Below, in pieces: positions 5,980 through 22,859 of a stretch of 24,000 nt of DNA. Each line of letters starts with the position of its first letter. The stretch's first letter is position 1. The position numbers and the translations under genes are program-made. The notes below the pieces were generated by a model. The model was not told the origin of the DNA. It did no database searches and worked only from the letters and a program-made list of their open reading frames with translations. Source of the DNA: an uncultured beta proteobacterium. GTDB lineage: Bacteria; Pseudomonadota; Gammaproteobacteria; Burkholderiales; Rhodocyclaceae. The stretch spans positions 497,511 to 521,510 of the forward strand of contig CAWFIW010000007.1 of assembly GCA_963816095.1 (NCBI GenBank), given 5' to 3'.

Positions 5980-7466
5980 CAACGAAGTTTCAGTGGAGGC
6001 GAATGCCGGATTCATCGGCGTTAAGCAAAGCGGCCGTAGCTATAACCTGGTTGCTGGCCATCTGGCTGATATTGCTCTCCGGCCTGGCACAGGCACAAAC
6101 CCGAGAGTTGCCTGACTTTGCCGACCTTGCTGAAAAGCAGGGCATTGCCGTCGTCAATATCAGTGCAACACAAGTCGTGCGAGAACGGCAACGCTTTGGC
6201 GGCCTCCCGTTCGACGAGGATGACCCGGCCCTTGAACTCTTCCGGCGGTTCGCCCCCAAAGCGTTTCCACCGGGGCATCCGGCGATGCCGCGCGAGTTCG
6301 AGAACAAGTCACTTGGCTCAGGCTTTATTGTCAACACGGATGGTTACATTCTCACCAACGCGCATGTCGTCGATGGCGCGGATGAGGTGGTCGTCAAACT
6401 GACCGACAAGCGCGAGTTCAAGGCCAAGGTAATCGGCGCAGACAAGCGCACCGACATCGCCCTGATCAAGATCGAGGCAAGCGGCCTGCCGAGCGTCCGC
6501 CTGGGCGATCCGGCCAAACTGCGGGTTGGTGAGTGGGTGGTGGCGATTGGTTCGCCTTTTGGCTTCGAAAGCACTGTCACGGCAGGCATCGTCAGTGCCA
6601 AGGGACGCTCGCTGCCCCAGGAAAACTTTGTTCCCTTCATCCAGACTGACGTGGCCATCAATCCGGGCAACTCCGGTGGGCCGCTATTCAACATGAAAGG
6701 CGAAGTGGTCGGTATCAACTCCCAGATTTATAGCCGTTCGGGCGGCTATCAGGGGATTGCCTTTGCCATTCCCATCGACGTGGCCATGGAAGTACAAGCC
6801 CAGTTGCGCACTTCGGGCAAAGTCAACCGCGGGCGCCTCGGGGTAGCGATCCAGGAAGTCACCAAGGAACTGGCGGATTCGTTCGGCTTGAGCAAGCCGT
6901 TAGGCGCGCTGGTCGCATCCGTGGAGAAGGGGAGTCCGGCGGACAAGGCGGGGCTCGAAGCGGGTGACGTCATTCTGCGCTTCAACGACAAGCCGGTCGG
7001 CCAGTCGTCCGATCTGCCGCGCATGGTTGGCAATACCAGGCCAGGCACCAGGGCAAGTCTGCATGTCTGGCGCAGCGGTGCGAGCAAGGATCTGACCGTG
7101 ACGGTAGGGGAAATGCCTGACGAACTGGCCACCGGCCGCACGCAACGTCGCGGCAAGCCGGCCGAAGCGGTTCCGGCGAACCGTCTGGGCCTCGTGCTGA
7201 GCGAGCCCACCGCCGAACAAAAGCGCCAACTGGGCATTCGCAACGGCCTGATCGTCGAGGATGTACGCAATGGCGCACGCAACGACCTGCGCCAGGGCGA
7301 TGTGCTCCTGGCCCTGATCCAGAGCGGCGTGCAGACCGAAATTCGTTCGCTGGATCAGTTCAACGGACTGCTGGCGAAAATCAATAAGGACAGCAACCTG
7401 ACCCTTCTGGTCAAACGCGGCGACAGTCAGACCTTTGTCACGATCAAGGGTGGCCAGGATAAGTAA
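5973..7466 (+). CDS. degP: periplasmic serine endoprotease DegP/DegQ/MucD (trypsin domain + 2 PDZ)
   Basis: Signal peptide ending LAQAQT. Catalytic-triad contexts TNAHVV (His), DIALIKI (Asp), GNSGGPLFN (Ser). Two PDZ-like segments (GALVASVEKGSPADKAGLEAGDVIL; GLIVEDVRNGARNDLRQGDVLL). Alternative start ATG 6003, preceded by GGAGG. Confidence 0.92.
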   Translation: MLTTKFQWRRMPDSSALSKAAVAITWLLAIWLILLSGLAQAQTRELPDFADLAEKQGIAVVNISATQVVRERQRFGGLPFDEDDPALELFRRFAPKAFPPGHPAMPREFENKSLGSGFIVNTDGYILTNAHVVDGADEVVVKLTDKREFKAKVIGADKRTDIALIKIEASGLPSVRLGDPAKLRVGEWVVAIGSPFGFESTVTAGIVSAKGRSLPQENFVPFIQTDVAINPGNSGGPLFNMKGEVVGINSQIYSRSGGYQGIAFAIPIDVAMEVQAQLRTSGKVNRGRLGVAIQEVTKELADSFGLSKPLGALVASVEKGSPADKAGLEAGDVILRFNDKPVGQSSDLPRMVGNTRPGTRASLHVWRSGASKDLTVTVGEMPDELATGRTQRRGKPAEAVPANRLGLVLSEPTAEQKRQLGIRNGLIVEDVRNGARNDLRQGDVLLALIQSGVQTEIRSLDQFNGLLAKINKDSNLTLLVKRGDSQTFVTIKGGQDK

Positions 7467-7758
7467 GCCGGTTCTGACTCTCTACGGCAGGAAATACTGC
7501 CACCTGTGTGAAGACATGCTCGCCGCGCTCGAAACTTTGCGCGGCGAGTTTTCGTTCGCAATCGAGGTCGTCGATGTTGATGCCGACCCTGTGCTGGAAC
7601 GAAAGTACAACGAACTCGTGCCAGTTCTTGTGGTTTCAGACTGCGAGCTTTGTCATTATTTTCTGGATGATGTGGTAGTAAGAGAATATCTCACTAGTAC
7701 TGCACACGGTGGGCAGGTCGTCTCGGCAGTTTCCGGCAGGTATGATGACGTACTGTGA
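7435..7758 (+). CDS. glutaredoxin-like protein (DUF836 / glutaredoxin_2 family)
   Basis: LTLYGRKYCHLCEDMLAALE...VDVDADPVLERKYNELVPVLV: thioredoxin-fold CxxC (CHLC) and family-typical layout. The track start ATG 7435 overlaps degP by 32 nt. In-frame GTG 7450 is an equally plausible start. Confidence 0.7.
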   Translation: MSRSRVARISKPVLTLYGRKYCHLCEDMLAALETLRGEFSFAIEVVDVDADPVLERKYNELVPVLVVSDCELCHYFLDDVVVREYLTSTAHGGQVVSAVSGRYDDVL

Positions 7759-7785: not shown

Positions 7786-9291
7786 TTGAATACCGCCGAT
7801 GTTTCTCTGTTCGCCGAAGACGCCGATGTCGAGTCGCTGAAGCACGCAGCAGCGGCGCTGAAGAGTTGGGACCTGCGTGGTCATCCGCTCGGCCTGCTGG
7901 AGTTGTTGCTGCTGGGTTTCTGCGCTCCACTACGAGGTTATCTGGGCCGTGCCGACTGCGCTGCCGTGTTGGCCGGGCAGCGGTTGTCCGACGGCCGGCC
8001 GTGGTCTTTGCCCGTGTTGCTGGAGGTAAGCTCCTCTCTTACCGAGTCGCTTGCTCCGGGCGAGCGCGTAGCACTACGGGATGCTGAGGGGGTGCTGCTG
8101 GGAATTCTGGCGGTTGAAGAGAAATGGTCGGCGACCGATCTGCCTGCAGAGATGATGACCGAACTGGCATCGCTGGGTTACGACGGAGGCGTTTTTCTCG
8201 CGGGGCCGGTGGTCGGGGTCGAAGCACCGGTGCATTACGATTTTTTAGCCTTGCGGCTGAATCCCGAGGAGTTGCGCGGCCAGTTTGCCAAGCGCGGCTG
8301 GCGCAAGGTGCTGGCCTGTCAGCCGGCGGAGATGATCCAGCGTGCCGAGGCGGCGCGCATCGTGCATGCGGCGTGCATTGCCCAAGCCAACGTGTTGGTG
8401 CTGGCCATGACAGCGGAAGAGCAGACGCTCACGCTCGATCACTACACGCGCATCCGCGTGCTGGAGCACGGCCTGCGCTACCTGCCCGAACGCGGGGCGT
8501 TGCTGTCGCTGCTGCCTTTGCCCGGGCCGCTGGCGTCGCCGCGCGAAGTATTGTGGCGGGCTTTGCTGGCCCGCAATGCGGGCGCGACGCATCTGCTGGT
8601 GGAACCGGAATGGTGGCACGGTGCGGCTGCCGGTACGCGGCAGGCCGTGGCGGCGCTGGCACGCGAAGCGGGAATCGAACTGGTGGATCTGCCGCGCTTC
8701 GCGTGCACCGAGGCGCTGAAGGACTATTTACCAGTGCCGGTGCCAGTGCGCGGACGGCAGGGCGTGACAGTATTCTTCACCGGCCTTTCCGGGGCGGGCA
8801 AGTCAACCATGGCACGTGTGCTGCTGTCTAAACTGCTGGAGGTCGGCGATCGCACCGTGACGCTGCTCGATGGAGATGTCGTGCGCAAGCATCTTTCCAG
8901 CGAGCTGGGCTTTTCGCGGGCGCATCGCGACCTGAATATTCAGCGCATCGGTTTTGTGGCAAGCGAGATTACCAAGCATGGCGGTATTGCGCTCTGCGCG
9001 CCGATTGCGCCCTACCGGGCGACGCGGCGCAAGGTGCGCGAGATGGTGGAGGCGCATGGCGGCTTCGTCGAGGTGCATGTGGCCACGCCGCTGGAAACCT
9101 GTGAAGCACGAGACCGGAAGGGGCTTTACGCCAAGGCACGGGCCGGGCTGATCAAGGAATTCACTGGCATCAGCGATCCCTACGAGGCACCGGAACACGC
9201 CGAACTGGTGATCGACACGCGCGATTGCACGCCGCTCGAAGCGGCGCAGATGATCATTGCCCGGCTGGAGGACGATGGGTTCATCCCTTGA
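7786..9291 (+). CDS. cysC: two-domain adenylylsulfate (APS) kinase with degenerate N-terminal ATP-sulfurylase-like domain
   Basis: C-terminal APS kinase signatures: VFFTGLSGAGKST (P-loop), LLDGDVVR, LGFSRAHRDLNIQRIGFV, CAPIAPYRATR, LYAKARAGLIKEFTGISDPYEAPE. The N-terminal ~320 aa are sulfurylase-like (LLELLLLGFCAPLRGYL, DGRPWSLPVLLEV). The catalytic motifs are replaced: ACQPAEMIQRAE instead of QTRNPxHRAH, and VEPEWWHG instead of VGRDHAG. TTG start at 7786 is the only start in the open frame consistent with the domain N-terminus. Confidence 0.85.
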   Translation: MNTADVSLFAEDADVESLKHAAAALKSWDLRGHPLGLLELLLLGFCAPLRGYLGRADCAAVLAGQRLSDGRPWSLPVLLEVSSSLTESLAPGERVALRDAEGVLLGILAVEEKWSATDLPAEMMTELASLGYDGGVFLAGPVVGVEAPVHYDFLALRLNPEELRGQFAKRGWRKVLACQPAEMIQRAEAARIVHAACIAQANVLVLAMTAEEQTLTLDHYTRIRVLEHGLRYLPERGALLSLLPLPGPLASPREVLWRALLARNAGATHLLVEPEWWHGAAAGTRQAVAALAREAGIELVDLPRFACTEALKDYLPVPVPVRGRQGVTVFFTGLSGAGKSTMARVLLSKLLEVGDRTVTLLDGDVVRKHLSSELGFSRAHRDLNIQRIGFVASEITKHGGIALCAPIAPYRATRRKVREMVEAHGGFVEVHVATPLETCEARDRKGLYAKARAGLIKEFTGISDPYEAPEHAELVIDTRDCTPLEAAQMIIARLEDDGFIP

Positions 9292-9382
9292 ACAACCTCA
9301 TGCCCGGACTGCTGTCGAGAATTTTTACACTTCTTGCCATGTTTTGAAAATCAATTTCCAATATTAAGATTTATCTAGTTGA

Positions 9383-9399
9383 TTATTAGTAACTAATAA
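9383..9399 (+). promoter_or_regulatory. perfect 8-1-8 palindrome TTATTAGT-A-ACTAATAA, candidate operator/activator site
   Basis: Read directly: positions 9383-9390 are the reverse complement of 9392-9399. It lies 4 nt upstream of the -24 element of the sigma-54-type promoter. An imperfect dyad TTGAAAATC/AATTTCCAA sits at 9344-9361. Confidence 0.35.
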
Positions 9400-9403
9400 A
9401 ATA

Positions 9404-9419
9404 TGGCACGAGTCATGCA
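9404..9419 (+). promoter_or_regulatory. sigma-54 (RpoN) -24/-12 promoter of the PEP-CTERM gene
   Basis: TGGCAC-gagtc-ATGCA against consensus TGGCAC-N5-TTGCA. GG (9405-9406) to GC (9417-9418) spacing is exactly 12, with one mismatch (T to A). Predicted TSS about 9430; ATG at 9476; SD GGGGAG at 9464-9469. Confidence 0.6.
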
Positions 9420-9475
9420 TGAAGCTAGCCGTCGTTCTGGTCTTTTTGTAAATTTCTCTTACTGGGGAGATTCAA

Positions 9476-10246
9476 ATGAAAAAAATTCTTGCAGTAGCCA
9501 TTGCTGGCATGGGTCTCTCGGGCTTTGCTCAGGCGGCCAGTTTCGTGAACGGTGGTTTTGAAGACGGCAATACGAACGGTTGGGATGTTGCAAGTTCGGC
9601 TTATCGGGCTTCCGTTAATAACACTACCCTGACGCCGGCCTGGGTTTTCGCTAATGCCACCAGTGCCAGTCATTCGGCCATCATTGCGAATAGCTACGTC
9701 GATCCCAACGTCGGCGCTCTGCTGGGCTCTACCGTCTACGGCGGCAACTACGGCTATCGTGTCGAAGACACAACGTGGGGTGGTTATGCTTCTGCGATCA
9801 AACAGACGGTTGTGAACTATACCGATCCAACCATCTATTTCGCATGGAAGGCCGTTTTGGAGGCGGCTCATGCTGTTAGTAATGCTGCAGTGATGAAGCT
9901 TGTCCTGCGCGATGAAACTGATGGGGTTGATCTGATCACCCGTCTTTATACCGCCGTCGGTAGCGGCGTGGATGCCAACTTCTCTCTAGCAAACAATTAC
10001 TATTACACGCCGCAATGGCAGATCGAACAGTTGAATCTTGGCTCTTCGCTAATGGGCCATACTTTCTCCTTGGCGGTACTTGGCTCAGACTGTCAGCCGA
10101 CAGGACATGCCGGTTATGTGTATCTCGATGGTTTTGGCGCCCAGATTCCGGATCCGGGTAATGGCGTTCCTGAGCCCGCTTCGCTGGCACTGCTTGGTTT
10201 CGGCTTGGCCGGTCTGGCCGCGACTCGTCGTCGCAAGATTATCTGA
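9476..10246 (+). CDS. secreted PEP-CTERM sorting-domain protein (exosortase substrate)
   Basis: Signal peptide MKKILAVAIAGMGLSGFAQA|A. C-terminal VPEPASLALLGFGLAGLAATRRRKII, i.e. PEP motif, TM helix and Arg cluster: the canonical PEP-CTERM tail. N-terminal NGGFEDGNTNGW suggests a lectin/CBM-like jelly-roll, which is a weak inference. Confidence 0.9.
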   Translation: MKKILAVAIAGMGLSGFAQAASFVNGGFEDGNTNGWDVASSAYRASVNNTTLTPAWVFANATSASHSAIIANSYVDPNVGALLGSTVYGGNYGYRVEDTTWGGYASAIKQTVVNYTDPTIYFAWKAVLEAAHAVSNAAVMKLVLRDETDGVDLITRLYTAVGSGVDANFSLANNYYYTPQWQIEQLNLGSSLMGHTFSLAVLGSDCQPTGHAGYVYLDGFGAQIPDPGNGVPEPASLALLGFGLAGLAATRRRKII

Positions 10247-10268
10247 AGCGCTCGTTAGTGCAGTGCTG

Positions 10269-10299
10269 AAACGGCGGCCTTCAGGTCGCCGTTTTTCTT
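10269..10299 (+). terminator. Rho-independent terminator after the PEP-CTERM gene
   Basis: AAACGGCGGCC-TTCA-GGTCGCCGTTT. An 11-bp stem with one G-U pair and a tetraloop, running into TTTTTCTT. Located 23 nt after the stop codon. Confidence 0.75.
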
Positions 10300-10349
10300 G
10301 GCAAGTACTGCAATATTATTGTTTTCGATAAAATCAATCCATTTTGGTA

Positions 10350-11876
10350 ATGATCACCCATATGCAACGAGGCTTTGCAGCAGTCAAAGCCGGCAATCCC
10401 CTGGAGGCCATGCAATGGTTTGAAAAGGCATGGCTAGCCAACCCTGCCGACGCCCAGGCACGAACTTGGCTTGGGCAATCCCTTTGCAGTCTAGGCAGGC
10501 TTGATGAAGGGACTGCCCACCTTCTTGAGGCGGGCAATAGCCTTTTGGAAAGTGCTCATGAAGCACGGAATCCCAATCTGGCTCTGGAAATAGCGGGACA
10601 ATTACAGCACTGGGGCGACTTTCCCGGTGCATTGAAGCTTCTTAAGACAGCTCTTGAGGTTTCTCCATCGGAATTTCGTGTCCATCAGCTTCTTGCCGTT
10701 ACTTATGCACAGCTGAACAAGAAAGCCGATGCGCTTGCAGCAGCCGAGCAGGCTCTACAGTTGTCGCCGGAAAATCACATGATGCAGGTCTTTCTCGGAA
10801 GTCTGGAAGCTGACGCCGGCAAGAATCAAGCTGCGCGGGATCGGCTTGAGAAGGTTGTCGCCGGGCAACCCGGGCCTCGAGAAGCTTTCAGAGCCCACAA
10901 GGAACTAGCTCGTGTCCTGGATAGGCTTGGAGAGTTCAATCCGGTCTTTGCGCATTTGCATGCCGCGGGTGTTTTGTCGGCCTCTTTGCCAGAGTATGTC
11001 CAGCAGGACGCAACCATGGTTCCGGGCATGCTCAAGGTCAATCAATCCACATTTAAGCGGAGCTTGATGGAGCGCTGGGTTGGTACGGAATTTCCTCCGG
11101 ACCAGCCAGCTCCAAACTTCGTTATTGGATTCATGCGATCCGGCACGACATTGACGCAAGAAGTTCTGGATGCGCACCCCGCGGTATTTGTTGCTGACGA
11201 AATCGATTTTATTTCAGCTATGAAGCGTGAGTTGCACTCAATGGACAAGTCTGGTGGCGGCACTGCGGAGAAACTTGATCGCCTAGATATAAACGGGTTG
11301 CTGCATCTGCGGGAATTCTATTGGAGAAGAGTGCACGAGCGGTTTGGCAATACAATTGGCAAGCGAACTTTCGTGGATAAATTCACCATGAACATAGTTG
11401 ATCTGGGCTTGATCAACTGCGTTTTTCCGGATGCCAAGGTCGTATTTGTGACGCGAGATCCTCGCGATGTCTGCCTCAGTTGTTTTATGCAATTGATGGT
11501 ACCTACACCCACCACGGTGCAGTTGCTTACCTGGGAGAGCACCATAAACTTCTACGCTGAAGTTATGGCTTGGTGGCTGTACATCAAAAACGAGATGTCT
11601 CTTCGGTTTATCGAATTTCGTTACGAGGATGTAGTCTCGGATTTTGAGGCGACCTATCGACAGGTTTTTGCGTTTCTGGGTCTGCCTTGGAACTCTGCGG
11701 TTATGGATTTCCACCAGCGCGCTGCACAGAAACATGTTGCGAGTCCTAGCCGCACCCAAGTAACTCAGCCGCTGTATGCTTCCTCAGTGGCGAGATGGCG
11801 TCACTATGAATCCGATTTCGCCGTCGTGATGCCTATCCTGCGCCCGTTCATTGAAAAGTTCGGCTATAACGATTGA
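10350..11876 (+). CDS. TPR-repeat protein fused to PAPS-dependent sulfotransferase domain
   Basis: The N-terminal ~230 aa are TPR-like (repeated A..W/Y..A..L.P). The C-terminal domain has the 5'-PSB motif FVIGFMRSGTTLTQEVL, the 3'-PB motif VVFVTRDPRDVCLSCF, and FRYEDVVSDFEATYRQVFAFLGLPW...VARWRHY, typical of the Sulfotransfer_3-like family. Start uncertain: TTG 10344, ATG 10350 or ATG 10362. Confidence 0.85.
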   Translation: MITHMQRGFAAVKAGNPLEAMQWFEKAWLANPADAQARTWLGQSLCSLGRLDEGTAHLLEAGNSLLESAHEARNPNLALEIAGQLQHWGDFPGALKLLKTALEVSPSEFRVHQLLAVTYAQLNKKADALAAAEQALQLSPENHMMQVFLGSLEADAGKNQAARDRLEKVVAGQPGPREAFRAHKELARVLDRLGEFNPVFAHLHAAGVLSASLPEYVQQDATMVPGMLKVNQSTFKRSLMERWVGTEFPPDQPAPNFVIGFMRSGTTLTQEVLDAHPAVFVADEIDFISAMKRELHSMDKSGGGTAEKLDRLDINGLLHLREFYWRRVHERFGNTIGKRTFVDKFTMNIVDLGLINCVFPDAKVVFVTRDPRDVCLSCFMQLMVPTPTTVQLLTWESTINFYAEVMAWWLYIKNEMSLRFIEFRYEDVVSDFEATYRQVFAFLGLPWNSAVMDFHQRAAQKHVASPSRTQVTQPLYASSVARWRHYESDFAVVMPILRPFIEKFGYND

Positions 11877-11971
11877 GACTTCAACTGATATTCAGGGTCG
11901 CAGAGCCGGATTTGAACTGATTCGAAGAAATGGATGTACCACAGGCGTGGTCTATTAGAGGAGTGGTTTCC

Positions 11972-14728
11972 GTGAAACTGATCAATGCACACTTGGTGGT
12001 TGTTGCGGCCGCTGCATTTCTCGCCGTCGGTTGCTCCAATTCGACTGCCGATTCCATCCGGCAGGGCAAGGAGCATCTGAACAAAGGGGAGCTGTCTTCT
12101 GCCGTTATCTCCTTCAAGAATGCCGTTCAGAGTGATGCGTCGTCGTCAGAGGCGCGCTCAGCACTGGCCGACGCCCTGGAGCGAACGGGCGACATGGTCG
12201 GGGCCGAACAACACTTACGCCAGGCATTGGTCCACGGCGGCAATGCCGACGACCTTGTCCCCAGAATTGCATTGCTGCTTCTCGACCGTGGCGATTACGC
12301 CATTTTGGTCAAGGACTTCGCTGATCGGGAGCTTGCGCTTCCCACCGCCGACAGCGAATTGCGCGGTATCGTCGCTTTGGCGCATTTGGCACTGAGACAT
12401 CAGGACAAGGCGGAATGGCAACTGACGAGGGCCACAATCAATGCGCCTGCCGTAAGACTCGCGAAGGCTCAAATGGCCATCCAGGCAAAGCGCCCACAAG
12501 AAGCCATGGTAGAGGTGGAGGATCTCATCAAGGAAGGCAAGGCGCCCTGGTGGGTTCGGCGCGCGGCAAGTCGGTTGTATGTGGCTCGTGGCGATCAAGC
12601 CAATGCCTTGGCGTCCATGAAGAGTTCCTACGAGTTAGCCGGGTGGCATCAGGGGGTTATTGGTGAATATGCCGAGCAACTGTTCGAGGCCGGTAAATCT
12701 GCCGAGGCCAAGCCATTGTTGAACAAGCTCAGGAAAATCGCCCCTCGATATTGGCGGACTGCTTTCGTTGAAGCCTTGTTCCAGATGGAGGAGGGTAAGC
12801 AAGATCAGGCCCATGCCTTGGTTACAAAAGTTCTTGTGGCCTTGCCTGAACATGTCCCATCGTTACTGATTGCAGCAAAAGTTGAACTGGATCGTGGCGA
12901 ACTTTCATCGGCGGATAGCCGCTTGCGCAAAATTCTTTTCATTAATCCCGCGTCCCTCGGGGCGCTCCGCATGCAGTTCTTGCTGGAGCTTCGCCGCAAC
13001 GATTTGAAAGCTGCGGCAGCGATACTTGATCGCGCTTTGCGCTTGGCGCCGAATGATCGAGGTCTGCAGACGGCCTCCGCCGAACTTGCCTGGGCCAAGG
13101 GCGACAAGGCGGGTGCCGTGAAGCAGCTAACCAAAGCGGCCCAGACCCAGCCCCCCGGGGCCGACATACTGATTCGACTTGCCGAAATGAAGTTCGCACT
13201 GGGCAAACGTGACGAAGCTGGTCAGGCAATAAGTCAGGCAATTCAACTCTCCCATGACAACCCCGGCCTCAGGGAAGGCGTATTCCGCGCTCTTCTGAAC
13301 ATGCACTTGCTGGATAAGGCGCGGGAAATGGCCAAGGCAGAGTTGGAGCTTCGCCCCAAGGAACCTGAGCCCTACCTCTGGATGGCCGCGGTGGCGGGTA
13401 TTGAGGGCAATGAAGCGGCTGCCTTCGAGCAGACCAGCCGCGCCCTGGACGTCCGCCCCGACTACTACCCGGCCCTGATGGCACTCGCGATATCCGCAAC
13501 GTCTGCGGACCGCAGCAAGCAATATGACGACCGGCTGAAAAGGGCGGTGGATGATAAAACAAAGGATGTTCGCATCTATTTCGACCTCGCCAAGAGAATG
13601 AGGATTGCTGGTGCAGATTCCGACAAGATTGGTGCGGTGCTCGAGCGCGGCGTGGCAGCGGATGCGGAGTCGGTCGGGTTGCGTGAGGCAGCGATTCGTC
13701 ACTGGCTGGCCTGGGGCAAGAAGGACAAGGCGCTGTCAGTGGCGAGCGAGGGCGAGGCCGCGAATCCTGACAATCTGGCGATGAAAGTGCTGGCAGCCTC
13801 GACACATGAAGCTGCTGGCAATTTCGAACAAGCGATCAACAAGTATGCCGAACTCAAGGCGCGCTTTCCGGAGCGTGTGGACTGGGGTTTGAGGCATGCA
13901 CAAACCCTGGTGCGTGCTGGCAAAGCACCGGACGCTATGCTTGCGTTGCGCAAGTTGATCGCCCAGCGTCCGGATGAGCCAGCCCCATATCAAATGCTGG
14001 CAATGCTGCAGGTCGAACAGAAACAGGGCAGCGACGCGTTGGTAACTGCCGGCATGCTGACCGATCGCCCCAAGCTCAAAGCCACTGGTCTGTTATTGCG
14101 TGGCGATGTACATGCGGTATTGGAGGAAGAACCCAAGGCGCTCAAAGCCTACGAAACGGCGGGCAAGGCGGGTGCATTGGAAGAAGCGGGGCTGCGCAGG
14201 ATCGAGTTGCAGGCGCGTACGCTGGGTGGCGACTATGCCATTAGCGAATTGCGTGATTGGCTGGCCAAGCATCCGGACAGTATTCCTGCAATGACTTTGG
14301 CAGTTCGCTATGCCAGTGCCAAAGGGGATTACGCTACTGCGGCCAAATATCTGGAAACTATCGACAAACTGAACCCGAACAATCCGGTGACGTTGAACGA
14401 TCTGGCGTGGGCTTACGCTCAGGCTCGAAAGCCTGAGGCGTTGGCGGTGGCACGGAAAGCCATCGCGATGGCGCCGGAAAATCCTCAGGTTCTGGATACA
14501 CTGGCCGAGGCGCAAGCCTTGGCGGGACAGAAAAAGGATGCCATCGCGAGCCTGCGCTTGGCAATGGCACTTGCTCCGAGTAATTCGGTTGTGAAAGTCC
14601 ATCTCGCCGAACTGCTGGTCGAAGAGGGCAGCAAGAAGGAAGCTGTCGGGCTGCTGGAAGGCATCGATCAGCATGCGCTTGACAAGGAGGCAACGATCCG
14701 GTTCCAGCACATCAAGGGGAGTCTGTAA
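11972..14728 (+). CDS. prsT: PEP-CTERM system TPR-repeat lipoprotein PrsT
   Basis: About 918 aa of TPR repeats throughout, the size and architecture of TIGR02917. GTG 11972 is preceded by AGAGGAG (11957-11963). It gives the lipoprotein signal MKLINAHLVVVAAAAFLAVG|CS (lipobox LAVGC). The track ORF starts earlier, at 11930. Confidence 0.8.
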   Translation: MKLINAHLVVVAAAAFLAVGCSNSTADSIRQGKEHLNKGELSSAVISFKNAVQSDASSSEARSALADALERTGDMVGAEQHLRQALVHGGNADDLVPRIALLLLDRGDYAILVKDFADRELALPTADSELRGIVALAHLALRHQDKAEWQLTRATINAPAVRLAKAQMAIQAKRPQEAMVEVEDLIKEGKAPWWVRRAASRLYVARGDQANALASMKSSYELAGWHQGVIGEYAEQLFEAGKSAEAKPLLNKLRKIAPRYWRTAFVEALFQMEEGKQDQAHALVTKVLVALPEHVPSLLIAAKVELDRGELSSADSRLRKILFINPASLGALRMQFLLELRRNDLKAAAAILDRALRLAPNDRGLQTASAELAWAKGDKAGAVKQLTKAAQTQPPGADILIRLAEMKFALGKRDEAGQAISQAIQLSHDNPGLREGVFRALLNMHLLDKAREMAKAELELRPKEPEPYLWMAAVAGIEGNEAAAFEQTSRALDVRPDYYPALMALAISATSADRSKQYDDRLKRAVDDKTKDVRIYFDLAKRMRIAGADSDKIGAVLERGVAADAESVGLREAAIRHWLAWGKKDKALSVASEGEAANPDNLAMKVLAASTHEAAGNFEQAINKYAELKARFPERVDWGLRHAQTLVRAGKAPDAMLALRKLIAQRPDEPAPYQMLAMLQVEQKQGSDALVTAGMLTDRPKLKATGLLLRGDVHAVLEEEPKALKAYETAGKAGALEEAGLRRIELQARTLGGDYAISELRDWLAKHPDSIPAMTLAVRYASAKGDYATAAKYLETIDKLNPNNPVTLNDLAWAYAQARKPEALAVARKAIAMAPENPQVLDTLAEAQALAGQKKDAIASLRLAMALAPSNSVVKVHLAELLVEEGSKKEAVGLLEGIDQHALDKEATIRFQHIKGSL

Positions 14729-14746
14729 CAGCTTGAGGGTGTTGTG

Positions 14747-14773
14747 GCGTCCCGGTTTTCGTCGGCCGGGCGC
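14747..14773 (+). terminator. weak GC hairpin downstream of prsT (possible terminator)
   Basis: GCG(T)CCCGG - 10-nt loop - CCGGGCGC, 19 nt after the prsT stop. Followed by only TT, so it is not a canonical intrinsic terminator. Confidence 0.25.
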
Positions 14774-14877: not shown

Positions 14878-16665
14878 TTGGATCACATCAGAAACTTTTC
14901 CATCATTGCCCACATCGATCACGGCAAGTCGACGCTGGCCGATCGCATCATCCAGCGTTGCGGCGGCCTGTCCGACCGTGAAATGTCGGAACAGGTGCTC
15001 GATTCGATGGATATCGAGCGCGAACGCGGCATCACCATCAAAGCCCAGACCGCGTCGCTTTCGTACCTGTCCAGAGACGGCAAGCGCTACAACCTGAATC
15101 TCATCGATACGCCGGGGCATGTCGACTTTTCTTACGAAGTGTCGCGCAGCCTGTCAGCCTGCGAAGGTGCGTTGCTGGTAGTGGATGCCTCGCAGGGCGT
15201 CGAGGCGCAAACAGTGGCGAACTGCTACACCGCCCTCGAATTGGGTGTCGAGGTGCTTCCCGTCCTTAATAAAATGGATCTGCCGCAAGCGAATCCCGAT
15301 GGCGCACGCGAAGAAATCGAAGAAGTCATCGGCATCGATGCCACCGACGCCATTCCCTGTTCGGCCAAGACTGGTATGGGTATCGAAGACATCCTTGAAG
15401 CGGTGATTGCGCGGATTCCTCCGCCCAAGGGTGACCCGGCCGCACCATTCAAGGCTTTGATTATCGATTCGTGGTTCGACAACTATGTCGGCGTGGTGAT
15501 GCTGGTACGTGTTATCGATGGCACGCTGGGTCCCAAGGAACGCATTCGTCTGATGTCAACGGGAACCATCCATCTGTGCGAGCAGGTCGGCGTGTTTACG
15601 CCAAAATCCAAAGCCAAGGAACAGTTATCGGCTGGCGAGGTGGGGTTCATCATATCCGGCATCAAGGAATTGCAAGCCGCAAAAGTCGGGGATACCGTGA
15701 CGAAAGCCGATCGTCCGGCGACTGAGCCCCTGCACGGATTCAAGGAAATCAAGCCACAGGTGTTCGCCGGCCTCTATCCGATCGAGTCAAACCAGTACGA
15801 CCAACTGCGGGAGTCACTGGAAAAGCTGCAACTCAACGATGCTTCGCTGCATTACGAGCCGGAAGTGTCGCAGGCCCTCGGTTTCGGTTTTCGCTGCGGT
15901 TTCCTTGGCCTGCTGCACATGGAAATCGTGCAGGAGCGGCTGGAACGCGAGTTCGATCAGGATCTGATCACCACGGCGCCGACGGTGGTCTATCAGGTAC
16001 GCCTGCGCGATGGTACTGAAGTCCTCGTGGAGAATCCCTCGAAACTGCCCGAAGTGCAGAAGATCGAGGAGATTCGCGAGCCGATCATCACGACGGCGAT
16101 TTTCGTGCCGCAGGACTATCTGGGCGCGGTGATTACCCTGTGCGAGTCGAAACGCGGCTCGCAGGTCGATATGCGCTACCACGGACGTCAGGTGCATGTG
16201 ACTTATGAGATGCCGCTTGCCGAGGTGGTCTTCGATTTCTTCGACAAGCTCAAGTCGGTCTCGCGCGGCTATGCTTCACTCGACTATGAATTCAAGGAAT
16301 ATCGGGCCGCCGACGTTATCCGGCTCGATATCCTGATCAACGGTGAGCGGGTCGATGCGCTGTCGGTGATCGTGCATCGCGCCAATGCGCACTACCGCGG
16401 CCGTGAACTCGCTTCGAAGATGCGCGGGTTAATCCCCCGCCAGATGTACGATGTGGCGATCCAGGCGGCGATCGGTTCAACCATCGTGGCACGCGAGAAC
16501 GTCAAGGCCATGCGCAAGGATGTGCTGGCCAAGTGCTACGGTGGTGACATTACGCGCAAGAAGAAACTGCTCGAAAAACAGAAGGCCGGCAAAAAGCGCA
16601 TGAAGCAGGTTGGCAGTGTCGAAATTCCCCAGGAGGCTTTCCTGGCGGTGTTGCGTGGTGGAACG
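14878..16665 (+). CDS. lepA: elongation factor 4 (LepA); no in-frame stop in this sequence, reads through into lepB
   Basis: [26 protein letters not shown] (G1), DTPGHVDF (G3), NKMD (G4), C-terminal [34 protein letters not shown] 14878 aligns with the canonical LepA N-terminus. Deleting one G of the GG at 16657-16658 gives ...AVLRVER-TGA (16667-16669), a normal LepA end with an ATGA overlap onto lepB. Confidence 0.9.
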
Positions 16666-17460
16666 ATGAACATGAACTTTGCGCTGATTCTTTTCATATT
16701 GCTGGTGGTGAGCGCCATGCTCTGGGTGGCGGATCATTTCGTGTTCCGCAAGCGGCGCGCACCGGACGCCAAGGAGCCGGTCTGGGTTGAGTACGGTGCC
16801 AGCTTCTTCCCCGTCATCCTGATCGTGTTCCTGCTGCGTTCCTTTCTTGTCGAGCCCTTCAAGATACCTTCCGGGTCGATGATTCCGACGCTGCTGGTCG
16901 GTGATTTCATCGCCGTCAATAAATATACCTATGGCATCCGTTTGCCGGTAATCAACAAGAAGGTCATTGAAGTGGGCCAGCCATTGCGCGGCGATGTGGT
17001 GGTATTTCGCTATCCGCCCGATCCCTCGCTCGATTACATCAAGCGCGTAGTCGGCTTGCCGGGCGACCGGGTAGCCTATATCAACAAGCGCCTGACCATC
17101 AACGGCGAACCAGTTTCCCTTGAAAATACCGGCGATTACTTCGATGTGGAGCGCATGTTCTATACCCCGCGCTACGAGGAAAATCTGGGGGGGAAACAAC
17201 ACGCGCTGCTGATCGAGGAAGGCGCGCCGGCCTATGTGCCGCATGTCATGCAATTTCCCCGGCGCGACAATTGTCTCTACAATACCGACGGCGTGGTTTG
17301 CGAGGTACCGGCCGGACATTATTTTGTCATGGGCGACAATCGTGACAATTCGCAGGACAGTCGGGTATGGGGATTCGTGCCTGACGAGAATCTGGTCGGG
17401 AAAGCCTTTTATATCTGGTTCAATTTTGGGGATTTGAAGCGCATTGGCAGTTTTCGTTGA
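16666..17460 (+). CDS. lepB: signal peptidase I
   Basis: [20 protein letters not shown] (TM1), a basic loop, then a second hydrophobic segment. Catalytic Ser box [10 protein letters not shown]; Lys box [11 protein letters not shown]; [11 protein letters not shown]; WGFVP. ATG 16666 or 16672, with a GGTGGA SD-like element at 16657-16662. Confidence 0.92.
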
Positions 17461-20152: not shown

Positions 20153-20899
20153 ATGATTTTTCTGGGAGTGAACATCGACCATGTGGCGACCCTGCGTCAG
20201 GCGCGTCGCACCTACGAACCCGATCCGGTCTGGGCGGCTGCCGAAGCGCATCTGGGCGGCGCGGATGCGATCACCGTGCATCTGCGCGAAGACCGCCGCC
20301 ACATCGTCGACCGCGATGTCGAACTGCTGCGCGCCAGCGTGCAGACCAAGCTGAATCTCGAAATGGCGGCGACCGACGAAATGGTCGGCATCGCCTGCCG
20401 CCTCAAGCCCGAAATGTCGACGCTGGTGCCGGAAGGCCGCCATGAAGTCACCACCGAAGGCGGGCTCGACGTGGCAGGGCAGGAAGCGCGGCTCAAGGAT
20501 GTCGTATCCCGGATGAAGGATGCCGGCATCTATGTCAGCCTGTTCATCGACGCCGACCCAAGGCAGATCGAGGCCTCCGCACGTGTGGGCGCGCAGGCGT
20601 GCGAGATCCACACCGGCCCCTACGCGCATGCTTTCCACGACAGCGGGCGCGACATCGAGAGCGCGGCGGCGCAGGCCGAACTGAGAAAAGTCGGCGCTGG
20701 CGGGACGGCGATCATCGACTGCGGCATGCGCTTCAATGCCGGCCATGCGCTGAACTACGTCAATGTGCAGCCGATTGCCGCCCTGCCGGGCATCTGCGAA
20801 CTGCATATCGGCCATGCCATCGTCAGTCGTGCGGTCTTCGTTGGCCTGCGCGAGGCGGTGCGCGAAATGAAAGCCCTGATCCGGCGAGGTCGCCCAGCC
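20153..20899 (+). CDS. pdxJ: pyridoxine 5'-phosphate synthase; no in-frame stop in this sequence, reads through into acpS
   Basis: [67 protein letters not shown]. Removing one base in 20880-20899 (for example one C of CCC 20893-20895) yields ...RRGRQP-TGA (20901-20903), a GTGA overlap with the acpS start. Confidence 0.9.
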
Positions 20900-21278
20900 G
20901 TGATCTTCGGCATCGGCACCGATCTCGTCGCGATCGCACGCATGCGCGAATTCTGGCAGCGCCACGGTGAACGGGCGCTGGAAAAGCTGCTGGCGCCCGC
21001 TGAGCGGGCTGCCTGTCGCGAGAGTGCCGATCCCGGTCGTTTCCTTGCAAAACGCTTTGCCGCCAAGGAGGCGCTCGGCAAGGCGCTCGGCACGGGCATC
21101 CGCGCGCCGGTACTGCTGACCGGCCATTGCCGTGACGCATGACGATCTGGGCAAGCCGCTGCTGGAATTTTCTGCCGAACTGGCGCACTGGATCGCCGAA
21201 CGCGGCCTGACCTGCCATCTTTCGCTGAGTGACGAGACGGAGCATGCGCTGGCCTTTGTCGTCGTGGAAAAACCATGA
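20900..21278 (+). pseudogene. acpS: holo-ACP synthase (4'-phosphopantetheinyl transferase), frameshifted as sequenced
   Basis: GTG 20900 gives (M)[14 protein letters not shown]...[28 protein letters not shown] in frame 0. The homology then continues in frame +1 from about 21123 ([17 protein letters not shown]...[20 protein letters not shown], stop TGA 21276-21278). Frame +1 has a TGA at 21117-21119, so the shift lies at 21120-21124 (CCGGCC). Confidence 0.8.
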
Positions 21279-22282
21279 GCTACGGACCGTTGATGATCGA
21301 CATTGCCGGCACGGCCATGACCGCTGCCGAGCGCGAACGCCTGCTGCATCCGCTGGTCGGCGGCGTCATCCTGTTTGCCCGCAACTATTGCGATCCCGCA
21401 GCAATTGACGGCTCTGTGCGCGGCAATTCATGCGCTGCGTTCGCCGCGATTGCTGATCGCCATCGATCACGAGGGTGGCCGCGTGCAGCGTTGCCGCGAA
21501 GGCTTCACGCGCGTGCCGGCGATGCGCCGGCTGGGTGAGTGGTGGGATCGCGATGCGCGGGCGCCATCGCCGCTGCGCGCGCCATTGGCTTTACCCTCGC
21601 CGCCGAATTGCGTGCCTGCGGCGTCGATCTCTCCTTCACGCCGGTGCTCGATCTCGACTATGGGGTTAGCGGCGTGATCGGCGACCGTGCTTTTCATCGC
21701 GACCCCGAGGCGGTGATTGCACTGGCCGGCGCGCTCATCGAAGGCCTGCACGCAGGCCGGCATGGCCTGCTGCGGCAAGCATTTTCCCGGGCACGGCTGC
21801 GTCGCCGCCGATTCGCATCTGGCGATTCCGGTCGATGAGCGCAGCCTCGCAGAAATGGCCGACGACCTGCTGCCCTATCGCCGCTTGAAGCTGGATGCCG
21901 TGATGCCGGCGCATGTGATCTATCCGCAAATCGACAGCCGGCCGGCCGGCTTTTCGCCGGTCTGGATCGACAAGCTGCGCAACGGATTCGGCCACACCGG
22001 GCGTGATCTTCAGCGACGACCTGTCGATGGAAGGCGCCAGCGTCGCCGGCGGCATTGTCGGCAGGGCGGAGGCAGCATGGCAGGCGGGCTGCGACATGCT
22101 GCCGGTCTGCAACAAGCCGGAAACGGTGGTCGAACTGCTGGAGAAGCTGGCGTCCGGAAGTGGATCCGGAACGCAGCGCACGCATTGCGCGCCTGCTGCC
22201 GACGCAAGCTGCGCCCGCGTGGGACAGCCTGGCCGGACTTTGCGCCGCTGGCCGGGCTGCCTGTCAGGCGATGATGGCCTGA
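21275..22282 (+). pseudogene. nagZ: beta-N-acetylhexosaminidase NagZ, at least 5 frameshifts as sequenced
   Basis: NagZ homology hops frames. 21275-~21396: [41 protein letters not shown]. Then [53 protein letters not shown]. Then [64 protein letters not shown]. Then [14 protein letters not shown]...[24 protein letters not shown]. Then [12 protein letters not shown]...[10 protein letters not shown]...LLEKL. Then [17 protein letters not shown]..., stop TGA 22280-22282. ATGA overlap with the acpS stop. Confidence 0.85.
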
Positions 22283-22298
22283 CCCCTCTATTCGTTGA

Positions 22299-22859
22299 TT
22301 ACTTGACGCGGTTCTTGTATTCGCCGGTGCGGGTATCGATTTCGATCTTGTCGCCGGTCGCGACAAAGATCGGCACCATCACTTCCAGGCCGCTCGGCTT
22401 GATCTTCGCCGGCTTGAGCACCTTGCCGGAGGTGTCGCCCTTGACGGCCGGCTCGGTGTATTCCACCTCACGCACCACGCTGTTGGGCATTTCGACCGAA
22501 ATCGCCTTGCCTTCGTAGAACACCACTTCGACAGCCAGGCCGTCCTCGATGTAGGGAATGGCATCGGCCATGTTCTCGGCTTCGACTTCGTACTGGTGGT
22601 ATTCGTCGTCCATGAAGACGTACATCGGGTCGGCGAAGTAGGAATAGGTGCATTCCTTGCGTTCGGGCACGACCTGCTCGAACTTGTCGTCGGCCTTGTA
22701 GATGGCCTCGGACGGGGCGTCGGTGAGCAGGTTCTTGAACTTGAACTTGACGACCGCAGAACTGCGGCCACCCTTGTTGTATTCGGCCTTCTGGACGACG
22801 AGCGGATCGTTGCCGACCATGATGACGTTGCCGACGCGGAGTTCCTGAGCGGTTTTCAT
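22299..22859 (-). CDS. efp: elongation factor P, Arg32 (EarP-type)
   Basis: [32 protein letters not shown](32)[13 protein letters not shown]...; [13 protein letters not shown]; [12 protein letters not shown]; [15 protein letters not shown]. 186 aa. ATG at 22859-22857 on the minus strand. The track ORF extends spuriously to 23321. Confidence 0.95.

Follow-up and report, generated by a model that had tools for sequence, protein, structure and literature searches.

The window (the whole stretch of 24,000 nucleotides that was analysed, from an uncultured member of the Rhodocyclaceae) contains four genes between positions 7786 and 14728, all on the + strand, whose ORFs lie where an earlier note, made from the sequence alone, had placed them. 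The genes and features of the locus are as follows.

7435-7758: small DUF836 glutaredoxin-like gene between degP and the kinase gene
7786-9291, + strand: APS kinase, 501 aa (PF01583, TIGR00455)
about 7786-8730, + strand: PUA plus truncated, catalytically dead ATP-sulfurylase-like domain of the kinase
about 8758-9291, + strand: kinase domain of the APS kinase
9324-9329, + strand: TTTACA from the PEP-CTERM box, matching the 3' end of its enhancer-like element 'motif 1'
9404-9419, + strand: sigma-54 (-24/-12) promoter, TGGCACgagtcATGCA
9476-10246, + strand: secreted PEP-CTERM protein, 256 aa (PF07589, TIGR02595)
9476-9535, + strand: its signal peptide (...GFAQA/ASF)
10166-10243, + strand: its sorting tail (VPEP-TM-RRRK)
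about 10269-10299, + strand: intrinsic terminator after the PEP-CTERM gene
10344/10350-11876, + strand: TPR and sulfotransferase fusion, 508-510 aa (PF13469)
11930 (or GTG 11972)-14728, + strand: PrsT (TIGR02917)
14737-14752, + strand: weak terminator-like hairpin before lepA, from a consensus scan only, closing the sulfotransferase-prsT unit

Upstream of this module are fabF, a nadB-like gene and rpoE-rseABC-degP, and downstream lepA-lepB-DUF4845-rnc-era-recO-pdxJ-acpS, the two housekeeping blocks that the earlier note had described as flanking it. The four genes assigned to the interval are all present, with the refinement that a fifth small gene, that of the DUF836 protein, separates degP from the kinase gene and belongs to the conserved flank. 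HMM searches placed all four proposed identities, among them the TPR-sulfotransferase fusion and PrsT, above the curated thresholds. The G+C content falls to 0.50-0.54 across positions 9000-12000; that of the flanks is about 0.60.

The product of the first gene matched PF01583 (APS_kinase) with 202 bits (cut-off 21.1) and TIGR00455 with 189 bits (cut-off 138.7), and its score against NF004040, a model of the bifunctional enzyme, was 533, under the cut-off of 669. Its N-terminus carries a PUA_2 domain, after which PF01747 is matched over no more than its first 119 positions of 212. When this N-domain was aligned to the yeast sulfurylase, every catalytic motif was absent (QTRNPMHRAH aligned to QPAEMIQRAE, and GRDHAG to EPEWWH), so that the PAPS supply at the locus consists of the kinase step only, and the kinase itself cannot make APS; no active sulfurylase was found in the window. 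The dedicated PAPS supply that had been proposed thus holds for the APS kinase step but not for the synthesis of APS. The closest solved relative is the two-domain APS kinase Tbd_0210 of T. denitrificans (PDB 3cr8; E = 1e-120, kinase domains about 70% identical), in which an active APS kinase domain is likewise fused to an inactive sulfurylase-like one. The Entamoeba APSK (PMC13213808) has the same architecture. The window protein is the shorter one in this comparison, by about 40-50 residues. In the Thiobacillus-type loci L003 and L019 the kinase directly adjoins one to three TPR-sulfotransferases and a member of the same PEP-CTERM family, a context of which we found no published description in the literature.

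The second gene forms a single-gene operon, and its product matched PF07589 (29.5 bits, cut-off 20.7) and TIGR02595 (26.6 bits, cut-off 16). It belongs to a family of more than 1000 proteins. The AF2 model (pLDDT 81.7) gave Foldseek matches to CBM27/61/28/4/22/16 with E about 1e-5, and the mature protein is accordingly modelled as a CBM-like beta-sandwich domain. The sigma-54-type promoter and the terminator that the earlier note had assigned to this gene were both recovered. TGGCACgagtcATGCA is the sole sigma-54 match in the window, where 0.07 would be expected, and of 25 homologous genes, 19 have an equivalent site 52-147 nt 5' of their start (that at L056 is degenerate). The TTTACA element, presumed to be the PrsR site, lies 75 nt upstream of the promoter and recurs at a like offset in 17 of the 25 homologous loci; it fits the PEP-CTERM box, and this distance falls inside the published range of spacing (mean 62.8, maximum 92; Haft et al. 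2006, PMC1569441). The terminator consists of a stem of up to 12 bp with a GC-rich 8-bp core, followed by UUUUUCUU (folding energy -24.7 kcal/mol, z = -3.45).

The third product combines TPR repeats (residues about 1-235) with a catalytic domain (about 245-508) that matched PF13469 with 110 bits (cut-off 27). It has no signal peptide and is cytoplasmic. Across 24 orthologues there is no variation in RSGTTL, RDPRD, Glu284 or Ser467. By profile search the nearest type was TPST1/2 (E = 8e-14; next CurM, 3.5e-6), and hhalign gave a probability of 97.8% over 232 columns, the alignment continuing past the Pfam core into a C-terminal S-x-x-Q-V-x-x-P...W segment. Among solved structures the catalytic domain thus appears closest to the tyrosylprotein sulfotransferases TPST1 and TPST2 (PDB 5wrj, 3ap1, 8w5z), with 21-23% identity and TM 0.59-0.65 (0.65 for TPST1 with the AF2 model, pLDDT 87.4). 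The alignment covers the 5'-PSB RSGTTL, the 3'-PB RDxR, the catalytic Glu and a C-terminal motif that includes the Ser, and in it Arg78, Glu99 and Ser285 of TPST2 correspond to invariant residues of the window family; no equivalent of TPST Lys158 was clearly aligned. The position of TPST2 R101, which we take to be the arginine reading the acidic -1 residue, is occupied in the window family by a nearly invariant Asp. Unlike the cytoplasmic window enzyme, the TPSTs have no TPR repeats and are type II membrane proteins of the Golgi lumen. TPST1 is itself a member of PF13469, so that the TPST-like signal is partly one of family level, and PF13469 also includes enzymes without protein substrates. 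The top Foldseek matches of the full-length model were OGT, SPINDLY and AspH; the TPR similarity to these proteins is generic and is no proof of a protein substrate.

The fourth product is the XrtA/PEP-CTERM-system TPR lipoprotein PrsT (TIGR02917 416.8, cut-off 312.2, positions 6-897 of 899), with the lipobox LAVGC. It was called as 918 aa in an independent assembly, and GTG 11972 is likely to be the true start. The scan of the window found no sigma-54 promoter before the sulfotransferase gene, which is not co-transcribed with the cargo gene; in the window, as at the loci L008 and L066, it has the orientation of prsT and is probably co-transcribed with it.

We surveyed the linkage of these genes in 80 genome loci from Beta-, Alpha- and Gammaproteobacteria. 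Relatives of the sulfotransferase almost always adjoin a PEP-CTERM-type gene: the density of such ORFs is 0.5-0.7 per kb up to 500 bp from the sulfotransferase, compared with 0.013-0.024 per kb at 7.5-10 kb, a 20-40-fold local enrichment in all three classes (for one alphaproteobacterial orthologue, no PEP-CTERM gene lies within 10 kb). The neighbour belongs to the family of the window protein in 19 of the 23 betaproteobacterial loci, the other four being truncated contigs. In Methylococcales the neighbours are from other families, and hhalign found only the 30-residue sorting tail in common with the window protein, which indicates that the partner that stays constant is PEP-CTERM cargo in general. 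An APS kinase, in three unrelated architectures, is nearby in 13 of the 23 betaproteobacterial loci, CysQ (PAP phosphatase) in three and CysD/CysNC in others; PrsT is found in 12 of the 23 and is missing from nearly every methanotroph locus. The genes stay close together although their order and orientation are shuffled and the genomic contexts are unrelated. The link is not a chance one, and the comparison of neighbourhoods called for in the earlier note supports its reading: the linkage of sulfotransferase and PEP-CTERM gene spans three classes, and in Betaproteobacteria an APS kinase, CysQ or CysDN, and PrsT are frequent neighbours. Judged from these neighbourhoods, the first two form the conserved core and the last two are frequent but variable accessories.

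The locus points to a sulfation step in the exosortase/floc-matrix system, and we tentatively propose a PAPS-dependent module that is functionally part of this surface-protein system. APS from elsewhere in the genome would be phosphorylated to PAPS by the kinase, and the TPR-sulfotransferase would use PAPS to sulfate the PEP-CTERM preprotein while the cargo is still unfolded in the cytoplasm, with the TPR superhelix as the docking site, possibly for the C-terminal sorting tail. The sulfated cargo would then leave by Sec, be retained through its PEP-CTERM helix, be processed by exosortase and be incorporated into the extracellular matrix with the assistance of periplasmic PrsT. PrsK/PrsR would turn on the cargo gene via the sigma-54 promoter, and the sulfotransferase-prsT unit would be a separate transcript. 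The recurrence of APS kinases of three architectures, CysQ and CysD/CysNC supports the PAPS logic. We infer a protein acceptor (Tyr or another hydroxyl), recognised by the TPR domain and modified before export: the linkage is to PEP-CTERM cargo, the catalytic domain is nearest to the TPSTs, the sulfotransferase adjoins single-gene cargo operons, the usual layout of an enzyme-substrate pair, and a TPR region joined to a catalytic domain is the build of the protein-modifying OGT, SPY and AspH. In Aquincola, PepA gives unexplained multiple bands, which were read as post-translational processing and modification. We know of no sulfated Sec substrate in bacteria; as a precedent, HMW1C and TibC add glycans to Sec-exported adhesins in the cytoplasm.

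This acceptor, a possibility that we favour only modestly, competes with a scarcely less plausible one, in which the sulfated product is the exosortase-associated exopolysaccharide, modified at the cytoplasmic face as its undecaprenyl-linked repeat unit, or the acceptor that receives the cargo from exosortase; the CBM-like PEP-CTERM protein would bind or attach to the sulfated polymer, and PrsT would assist export or assembly. Lipid-linked repeat units are reachable by a cytoplasmic PAPS enzyme, and the predicted fold of the mature protein agrees with such a role, as does the finding in Aquincola that over-expression of PepA moves exopolysaccharide from the soluble to the cell-bound fraction and that flocs require prsT (Xia et al. 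2023, PMC9850573). In sludge, the EPS commonly contains sulfated glycoconjugates whose responsible sulfotransferases are not known (PMC10483923), and at L001 GT9, GtrA and PMT-family glycosyltransferase genes adjoin the cargo gene. The PEP-CTERM protein also bears no acceptor signature: no sulfated residue or acceptor motif was identifiable from its sequence, the acidic disordered Tyr segment of the kind preferred by TPSTs is absent, the tyrosines that the family conserves are just as constant in members without a nearby sulfotransferase, and no residue sets the sulfotransferase-adjacent members apart. Against a glycan acceptor, however, the sulfotransferase lies in no glycosyltransferase/Wzx-type polysaccharide cluster among the loci inspected, and the methanotroph cargo is neither CBM-like nor homologous, so that a specific lectin-ligand pairing is not general. 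With the catalytic domain alone, seven TPST entries but no solved carbohydrate sulfotransferase reached E = 0.01. To our knowledge, a TPR domain is not a feature of polysaccharide sulfotransferases, which also speaks against a glycan.

An unlikely alternative is another PEP-CTERM-linked acceptor, such as PrsT, exosortase, a PrsK-sensed signal or a lipid (e.g. the N-acyl amino acids linked to exosortase loci). An accessory enzyme of unforeseen chemistry, N-acyl amino acid synthase, has already been tied to PEP-CTERM/exosortase loci (Craig et al. 2011), CurM-type PF13469 enzymes sulfate acyl intermediates, and the probable co-transcription with prsT would suit PrsT; but PrsT is missing from about half of the betaproteobacterial and nearly all methanotroph loci, and no lipid-synthesis genes recur in the neighbourhoods. 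Chance or syntenic juxtaposition of a kinase for sulfur assimilation, an unrelated sulfotransferase and an independent pepA-prsT pair is disfavoured and highly improbable: L008 and L066, close relatives that lack the kinase at the same degP...lepA placement, L117, where kinase and cargo are adjacent without any sulfotransferase, and the PEP-CTERM family, with a sulfotransferase at only 5 of 30 loci, would fit it, but the local enrichment in three classes, the proximity kept through rearrangement, the recruitment of non-orthologous PAPS genes and CysQ, and a sulfurylase domain as dead as in the dedicated T. denitrificans enzyme argue against it.

Sulfation of a PEP-CTERM preprotein would have partial parallels in known systems. 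RaxST of Xanthomonas oryzae, with RaxPQ, is a cytoplasmic TPST-like PAPS enzyme encoded beside its secreted substrate RaxX, which it sulfates before export (PMC6637879, PMC4646787), as proposed here, and its PAPS also comes from an APS kinase. RaxST (compared from its published description) has no TPR domain, and RaxX, a RiPP-like peptide of 60 residues, leaves the cell through a type I system, whereas the candidate substrates here are 25-35 kDa Sec/exosortase cargo with Tyr sulfation as a candidate only. OGT, SPINDLY and AspH share the N-terminal TPR superhelix and C-terminal transferase or hydroxylase domain, and OGT has been raised as an analogy for TPR proteins of the PEP-CTERM system (Haft et al. 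2006, PMC1569441), but their catalytic domains have other folds (GT41 and 2OG oxygenase, against a P-loop sulfotransferase here). NodPQ/NodH of rhizobia and Xss synechan sulfation of Synechocystis (PMC8205485) also pair a dedicated PAPS supply with a sulfotransferase decorating a secreted product; unlike the window enzyme, theirs act on a lipo-chitooligosaccharide or polysaccharide inside matching biosynthetic clusters and have neither a TPR domain nor a PEP-CTERM partner, and NoeE, the only rhizobial model matched in the window, reached 28 bits where the cut-off is 500. A full-text literature search found no paper connecting sulfotransferases with the PEP-CTERM/exosortase system, in agreement with the earlier note, and sulfation is not mentioned in the papers on the pepA-prsT locus of Aquincola tertiaricarbonis and Zoogloea (Xia et al. 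2023, PMC9850573; Haft et al. 2006, PMC1569441). That locus has the same single-gene PEP-CTERM operon, with a -24/-12 sigma-54 promoter (Aquincola pepA is RpoN-dependent; PMC9850573) and a stem-loop terminator, then prsT on the same strand. The window differs in its cargo, which is of another family (floc_PepA 42 bits, below the cut-off of 80), and adds a TPR-sulfotransferase between cargo and prsT and an APS kinase upstream, pointing to a previously undescribed sulfation step in a bacterial exosortase/floc-matrix system.

Our analysis of the locus indicates, with high probability, a functional link between a PAPS-dependent sulfation step and the PEP-CTERM/exosortase surface system. The four plus-strand ORFs that the earlier note had placed within 7786-14728 were all found, as were the two housekeeping blocks said to flank them (rpoE-rseABC-degP upstream and lepA-lepB-rnc-era-recO-pdxJ-acpS downstream). 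The statement that only these four genes lie between the blocks has to be amended, since the note did not list an additional small gene for a DUF836 glutaredoxin-like protein. We regard this gene as part of the conserved flank and not of the module, because it also lies beside degP in two of the numbered genome loci that have relatives of the window genes (L007 and L008). The features of the region are as follows.

7435-7758, ahead of the APS kinase gene and overlapping the end of degP by 32 nt: DUF836 glutaredoxin-like gene
7786-9291, plus strand: gene 1, APS kinase (501 aa; PF01583, 202 bits; TIGR00455, 189, cut-off 138.7)
9324-9329, plus strand: TTTACA element, 75 nt upstream of the sigma-54 site
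9404-9419, plus strand: sigma-54 -24/-12 site, TGGCACgagtcATGCA (TGGCAC-N5-ATGCA), with the start codon 56 nt downstream
9476-10246, plus strand: gene 2, PEP-CTERM protein, the cargo (256 aa; signal peptide and sorting tail)
10350-11876, plus strand: gene 3, TPR repeats and PF13469 sulfotransferase domain (110.4 bits, cut-off 27)
11930 or 11972 to 14728, plus strand: gene 4, PrsT (TIGR02917, 416.8, cut-off 312.2)

When four of the profiles named in the note (TIGR02917, TIGR02595, PF13469 and PF01583) were run, all four scored above cut-off on the genes for which they had been named.

Some defects were seen in the flanks. The gene lepA lacks a stop codon and runs in frame into lepB (14878-17460; junction at 16651-16674, ...CGT GGT GGA ACG ATG AAC ATG AAC...), giving an ORF of 860 aa with LepA and signal peptidase I domains. 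The lepA stop is kept in the relatives L066 and L007 (TGA directly before ATG, or TAA and 11 nt). The LepB of the window has two TM segments with the N-terminus out, so that a true LepA-LepB fusion would be topologically awkward; the stop was lost either by a mistake in assembly or through a small deletion of recent date. Furthermore, one ORF at 20153-21142 holds both pdxJ and an acpS that is truncated to 67 of 111 profile positions, and a GH3 (nagZ-like) gene is broken over two overlapping frames at 21717-22518. These defects suggest indel errors of a long-read MAG, or real pseudogenes. On the minus strand, efp and earP (EF-P arginine rhamnosyltransferase) adjoin at 22299-23920, as is ordinary in Betaproteobacteria, and earP was matched in two stretches, possibly reflecting another frameshift. 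Genes 1-4 are intact despite these signs of error elsewhere in the window, and the cargo gene, the sulfotransferase gene and the start of the PrsT gene, at least, recur in an independent assembly.

The TPR-sulfotransferase fusion described for gene 3 was upheld, and both PAPS-binding motifs are present (5'-PSB RSGTTL and 3'-PB RDPRD) and invariant in 24 orthologues. No signal peptide or membrane segment was found in the translation or the model of the protein. The AF2 model (pLDDT 87.4, pTM 0.80) is an all-helical TPR superhelix packed on a P-loop sulfotransferase domain. Among solved structures, the sequence profile of the catalytic domain ranked the tyrosylprotein sulfotransferases (TPSTs) first (E = 8e-14) and CurM next (3.5e-6), and in a search with the catalytic domain by itself no carbohydrate sulfotransferase was found among them at E = 0.01. 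Comparison of the gene 3 family with TPST1 by hhalign gave a probability of 97.8% over 232 columns, and Foldseek gave TM values of 0.65 to TPST1 and 0.59 to tick TPST. The TPST homology runs about 55 residues past the Pfam core, and the CurM match ends at the core. In the alignments with TPST1, TPST2 and tick TPST, R263, E284 and S467 correspond to Arg78, Glu99 and Ser285 of TPST2, a numbering that we take to be that of the 3AP1 structure. These three residues are invariant in the 24 orthologues (alignment A2), the catalytic Glu lying in VADE284 and the Ser in a C-terminal PS467RxQVxxP...W. The equivalents of Lys158 and of Arg101 of TPST2, the latter a basic residue that senses acidic neighbours of the acceptor Tyr, appear not to be conserved in register: an invariant Lys, K344, sits two positions off the Lys158 column, and the R101 position is occupied by a nearly invariant Asp. 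Since TPST1 itself scores 198 bits with PF13469 and is a strong member of the same family, the TPST likeness is partly at the level of the family, and we rejected the argument that this similarity alone proves a protein substrate. The top structural matches of the full-length model were SPINDLY, OGT and AspH, in which TPR repeats are combined with a catalytic domain that modifies proteins; this TPR likeness is generic.

The supply of PAPS had been assigned to gene 1, which holds for the kinase step and fails for the sulfurylase step. The kinase domain is complete (all 152 PF01583 positions matched) and has the P-loop GLSGAGKST. N-terminal to it are a PUA_2 domain and then only the first 119 of the 212 ATP-sulfurylase profile positions, and the score with NF004040 (bifunctional sulfate adenylyltransferase/APS kinase) was 533, below the cut-off of 669. 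In an alignment with the yeast ATP sulfurylase, the motif QxRNPxHxxH (QTRNPMHRAH in yeast) reads QPAEMIQRAE and the GRD motif (GRDHAG in yeast) reads EPEWWH. Because both sulfurylase motifs are replaced, the product is predicted to convert APS to PAPS, with the synthesis of APS beyond its reach. The closest solved relative is the two-domain APS kinase of Thiobacillus denitrificans (3cr8, E = 1e-120), the N-domain of which is sulfurylase-like and catalytically inactive (PMC13213808). That enzyme, with a solved structure and an orphan function, gains a physiological context here. XrtA, PrsK and PrsR were not found within the 24-kb window; we assume that XrtA, PrsK/R and an active ATP sulfurylase are present in this organism outside it.

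Gene 2 encodes a secreted PEP-CTERM protein, as proposed, with an N-terminal signal peptide (MKKILAVAIAGMGLSGFAQA) and a C-terminal tail consisting of a VPEP motif, a TM helix and a basic cluster (GVPEPASLALLGFGLAGLAATRRRKII); the tail passed both curated cut-offs (PF07589, 29.5 against 20.7; TIGR02595, 26.6 against 16). Its identification as PepA, the floc protein of Aquincola, was rejected (NF033554, 42.1 against a cut-off of 80, with the C-terminal 43 residues alone aligned). The AF2 model (pLDDT 81.7) is a beta-sandwich with CBM27, 61, 28, 4, 22 and 16 as best structural matches (E about 1e-5, target TM 0.45-0.66), and this modelled fold is compatible with a matrix-binding role as in PepA, which moves polysaccharide from the soluble to the bound fraction (PMC9850573). 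The G+C content is 0.50-0.54 across the cargo and sulfotransferase genes (9000-12000), whereas the flanks have about 0.60 and the kinase gene 0.64; the lower value may reflect a different origin or codon usage of the two genes.

The spacer upstream of gene 2 is AT-rich and 184 nt long, and its sigma-54 site is the sole match in 24 kb, against 0.07 expected. Haft et al. 2006 described a two-part 'PEP-CTERM box', in which a motif 1 with TTTACA at its end is followed, after 63 ± 11 nt, by a sigma-54 site about 71 nt ahead of the start codon (PMC1569441). Gene 2 has the features of the proteobacterial box, namely TTTACA, the sigma-54 site, a single gene and a terminator. An equivalent upstream sigma-54 site was present in 19 of 25 homologous genes (one degenerate) and TTTACA in 17 of 25. 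The stop codon is followed by a strong hairpin and a U-tract (-24.7 kcal/mol, z = -3.45), so that the sigma-54-type promoter and the terminator claimed in the note both stand and gene 2 is an enhancer-dependent operon of one gene. For this gene a sigma-70 promoter was rejected, as the sites in the scan were no more numerous than in shuffles. For genes 3 and 4, which are separated by 53-95 nt on the same strand, the window scan gave no sigma-54 site, and these genes probably form a transcription unit apart from gene 2. The TIGR02917 match of gene 4 is full-length (residues 22-912, profile positions 6-897 of 899), confirming PrsT at the level of an equivalog, and its translation begins with a lipoprotein signal peptide (...AAAAFLAVG↓CSNS, lipobox LAVGC).

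The gene 3 orthologue family is large and well conserved: it had 551 protein-database matches, and full-length identity was 54% or higher in the top 120. A locus scan with one genome per species gave at least 471 sulfotransferase loci, the best 80 of which were analysed; some come from MAGs and are possibly mis-binned. The sulfotransferase-cargo linkage extends over hundreds of species, including Dechloromonas, Azonexus, Thiobacillus, Rhodoferax, Rubrivivax, Methylomonas and Methylobacter. Within 500 bp of the sulfotransferase, the density of PEP-CTERM-type ORFs was 0.51/kb in Betaproteobacteria, 0.46/kb in Alphaproteobacteria and 0.68/kb in Methylococcales, against 0.013, 0 and 0.024/kb, respectively, at 7.5-10 kb, an enrichment that far exceeds the noise from the few false ORFs that calling the tails by regex may let in.

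Among 23 non-redundant betaproteobacterial loci, 19 have a member of the gene-2 family (HMM E = 1e-62 to 1e-104), and in the other four the contigs end beside the sulfotransferase. An APS kinase is present in 13 of the 23, in three different architectures: a sulfurylase-like fusion kinase in Thiobacillus/Hydrogenophilales-type loci, and CysN-CysC fusions and stand-alone CysC in loci of Rhodoferax, Dechloromonas, Sterolibacterium and Azonexus. PrsT was found in 12 (the three tested, L001, L013 and L055, all pass TIGR02917), and CysD-CysNC in one. CysQ, the phosphatase that clears the sulfotransferase by-product PAP, was found in three. The co-occurrence of the four genes, which the note proposed to test, was thus seen for the sulfotransferase with its cargo, but only in part for the kinase and PrsT. 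The order and orientation of the module genes vary between loci, and the surrounding genes are unrelated (pilus, ubiquinone and LPS genes). That proximity is kept despite the shuffled order, and with non-orthologous PAPS genes recruited, argues for functional coupling and not inherited synteny. In L008 and L066 (sulfotransferases 71% and 64% identical), cargo, sulfotransferase and PrsT lie between degP and lepA with no kinase; because these loci share the exact place, the placement is old in the lineage, and the kinase was either added or lost.

The reverse relation is weak, with a sulfotransferase at five of 30 metagenomic gene-2-family loci (at least 2 kb on each side). Two loci, L003 (4963-15956) and the Thiobacillus-type L117 (8001-13721), share a context of VanZ, a 318-347 aa protein, a sulfurylase-like APS kinase ... 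cargo, SSF and UbiB; in L117 the kinase adjoins the PEP-CTERM gene and the three tandem TPR-sulfotransferases are absent. Judging from these gene orders, the TPR-sulfotransferases behave like a cassette that can be inserted or deleted. L117 and the five of 30 indicate that the sulfotransferase depends on a PEP-CTERM cargo and not vice versa, and its role would seem to be an optional decoration. An exception to the linkage is an alphaproteobacterial MAG (L006/L018, 4826-11518), in which an orthologue (58% identity) directly follows ccmCDEFGH and a 236-aa protein, with no PEP-CTERM gene within 10 kb. In a Rhodoferax MAG (L001, 3367-8711), genes for GT9, GtrA, a PMT-family (GT-C) glycosyltransferase and a BNR-repeat protein precede the cargo gene, and CysQ, CysD and CysNC follow on the other side, past the sulfotransferase and PrsT, which hints that glycosylation of the cargo or the matrix is organised together with sulfation.

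In Methylococcales the TPR-sulfotransferase forms at least two groups of paralogues, which lie within VPxP-CTERM gene clusters (loci L005, L023, L026, L029, L031, L039, L041-L045, L061 and L062). The neighbours belong to families other than gene 2 and end in the tail variant VPxP-GAVWLFGSA...RRK. The commonest is about 300 aa long, with the mature N-terminus TTMYNTF...TDGW and many invariant Trp, His and Asp, and others start A↓HV(S/T)YNL, so that signal cleavage leaves a His at the N-terminus. None of the families was reached by any named NCBIfam model. The neighbours were rejected as remote homologues of the gene-2 cargo domain, as profile-profile comparison of the commonest family with that of gene 2 aligned the 30-residue sorting domain only. 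With the sorting tail alone common to the neighbour families, the constant companion of the sulfotransferase would seem to be 'exosortase cargo' as such and no particular passenger domain.

As to the acceptor, we tentatively and slightly prefer the adjacent cargo protein, which the sulfotransferase would sulfate in the cytoplasm ahead of Sec export. We do so because the layout is enzyme-substrate-like, the sulfotransferase genes adjoining cargo operons of one gene and keeping apart from polysaccharide clusters; because the cargo partners have the sorting tail alone in common; because the catalytic domain is TPST-like and a TPR docking domain is present; and because cytoplasmic modification before export has precedents, such as RaxST of Xanthomonas acting on RaxX. 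HMW1C and TibC likewise glycosylate Sec-exported adhesins in the cytoplasm. The main rival, sulfation of an exopolymer or of the exosortase acceptor, is possible if somewhat doubtful; the CBM-like fold of the cargo, the PepA phenotype (PMC9850573) and the sulfated EPS of sludge (PMC10483923) speak for it. So does the lack of any acceptor signature found in the cargo: comparison of 36 sequences with and 21 without an adjacent sulfotransferase, made with Tyr especially in view, gave no informative residue specific to the former. Some other acceptor linked to the PEP-CTERM system is improbable, and coincidental juxtaposition, given the proximity kept through shuffled gene orders, is very improbable indeed.

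A broader form of the cargo reading, that the TPR-sulfotransferases are widespread bacterial protein sulfotransferases that would sulfate exosortase cargo before Sec export, possibly recognising it by the PEP-CTERM tail, is rather unlikely. If it is true, floc-forming Betaproteobacteria and methanotrophs have sulfoproteins as their PEP-CTERM surface proteins, this is the second documented bacterial protein sulfation and by far the most widespread, and there is a source for the unexplained sulfate in sludge and biofilm matrices. Wastewater bacteria form flocs and granules by means of PEP-CTERM/exosortase systems, and the chemistry of cargo maturation is a gap. The matrices of granular sludge hold sulfated glycoconjugates, for which the responsible sulfotransferases are unfound (PMC10483923). 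A TPST-like enzyme with its own PAPS kinase is a concrete, testable candidate for both cargo maturation and sludge sulfation.

The note had known of no sulfation branch of the PEP-CTERM/exosortase system, and a full-text literature search agrees: no paper was found that links sulfotransferases to PEP-CTERM, the sole paper retrieved with both terms using them in unrelated contexts; the papers on PrsT and flocs do not mention sulfation; and 'exosortase' is absent from the main text of the synechan sulfation paper (PMC8205485). The parts each belong to known families, and a cargo gene with a sigma-54 box, paired with PrsT, makes up the known floc module; what appears to be undescribed is the sulfotransferase/PAPS branch. 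In Aquincola tertiaricarbonis, pepA, like gene 2, lies upstream of prsT, depends on RpoN and is followed by a terminator, and prsT transcription is RpoN-independent (PMC9850573). The RaxX/RaxST system is reported to be the sole documented bacterial tyrosine sulfation, and there RaxX is modified in the cytoplasm before its export (PMC6637879).
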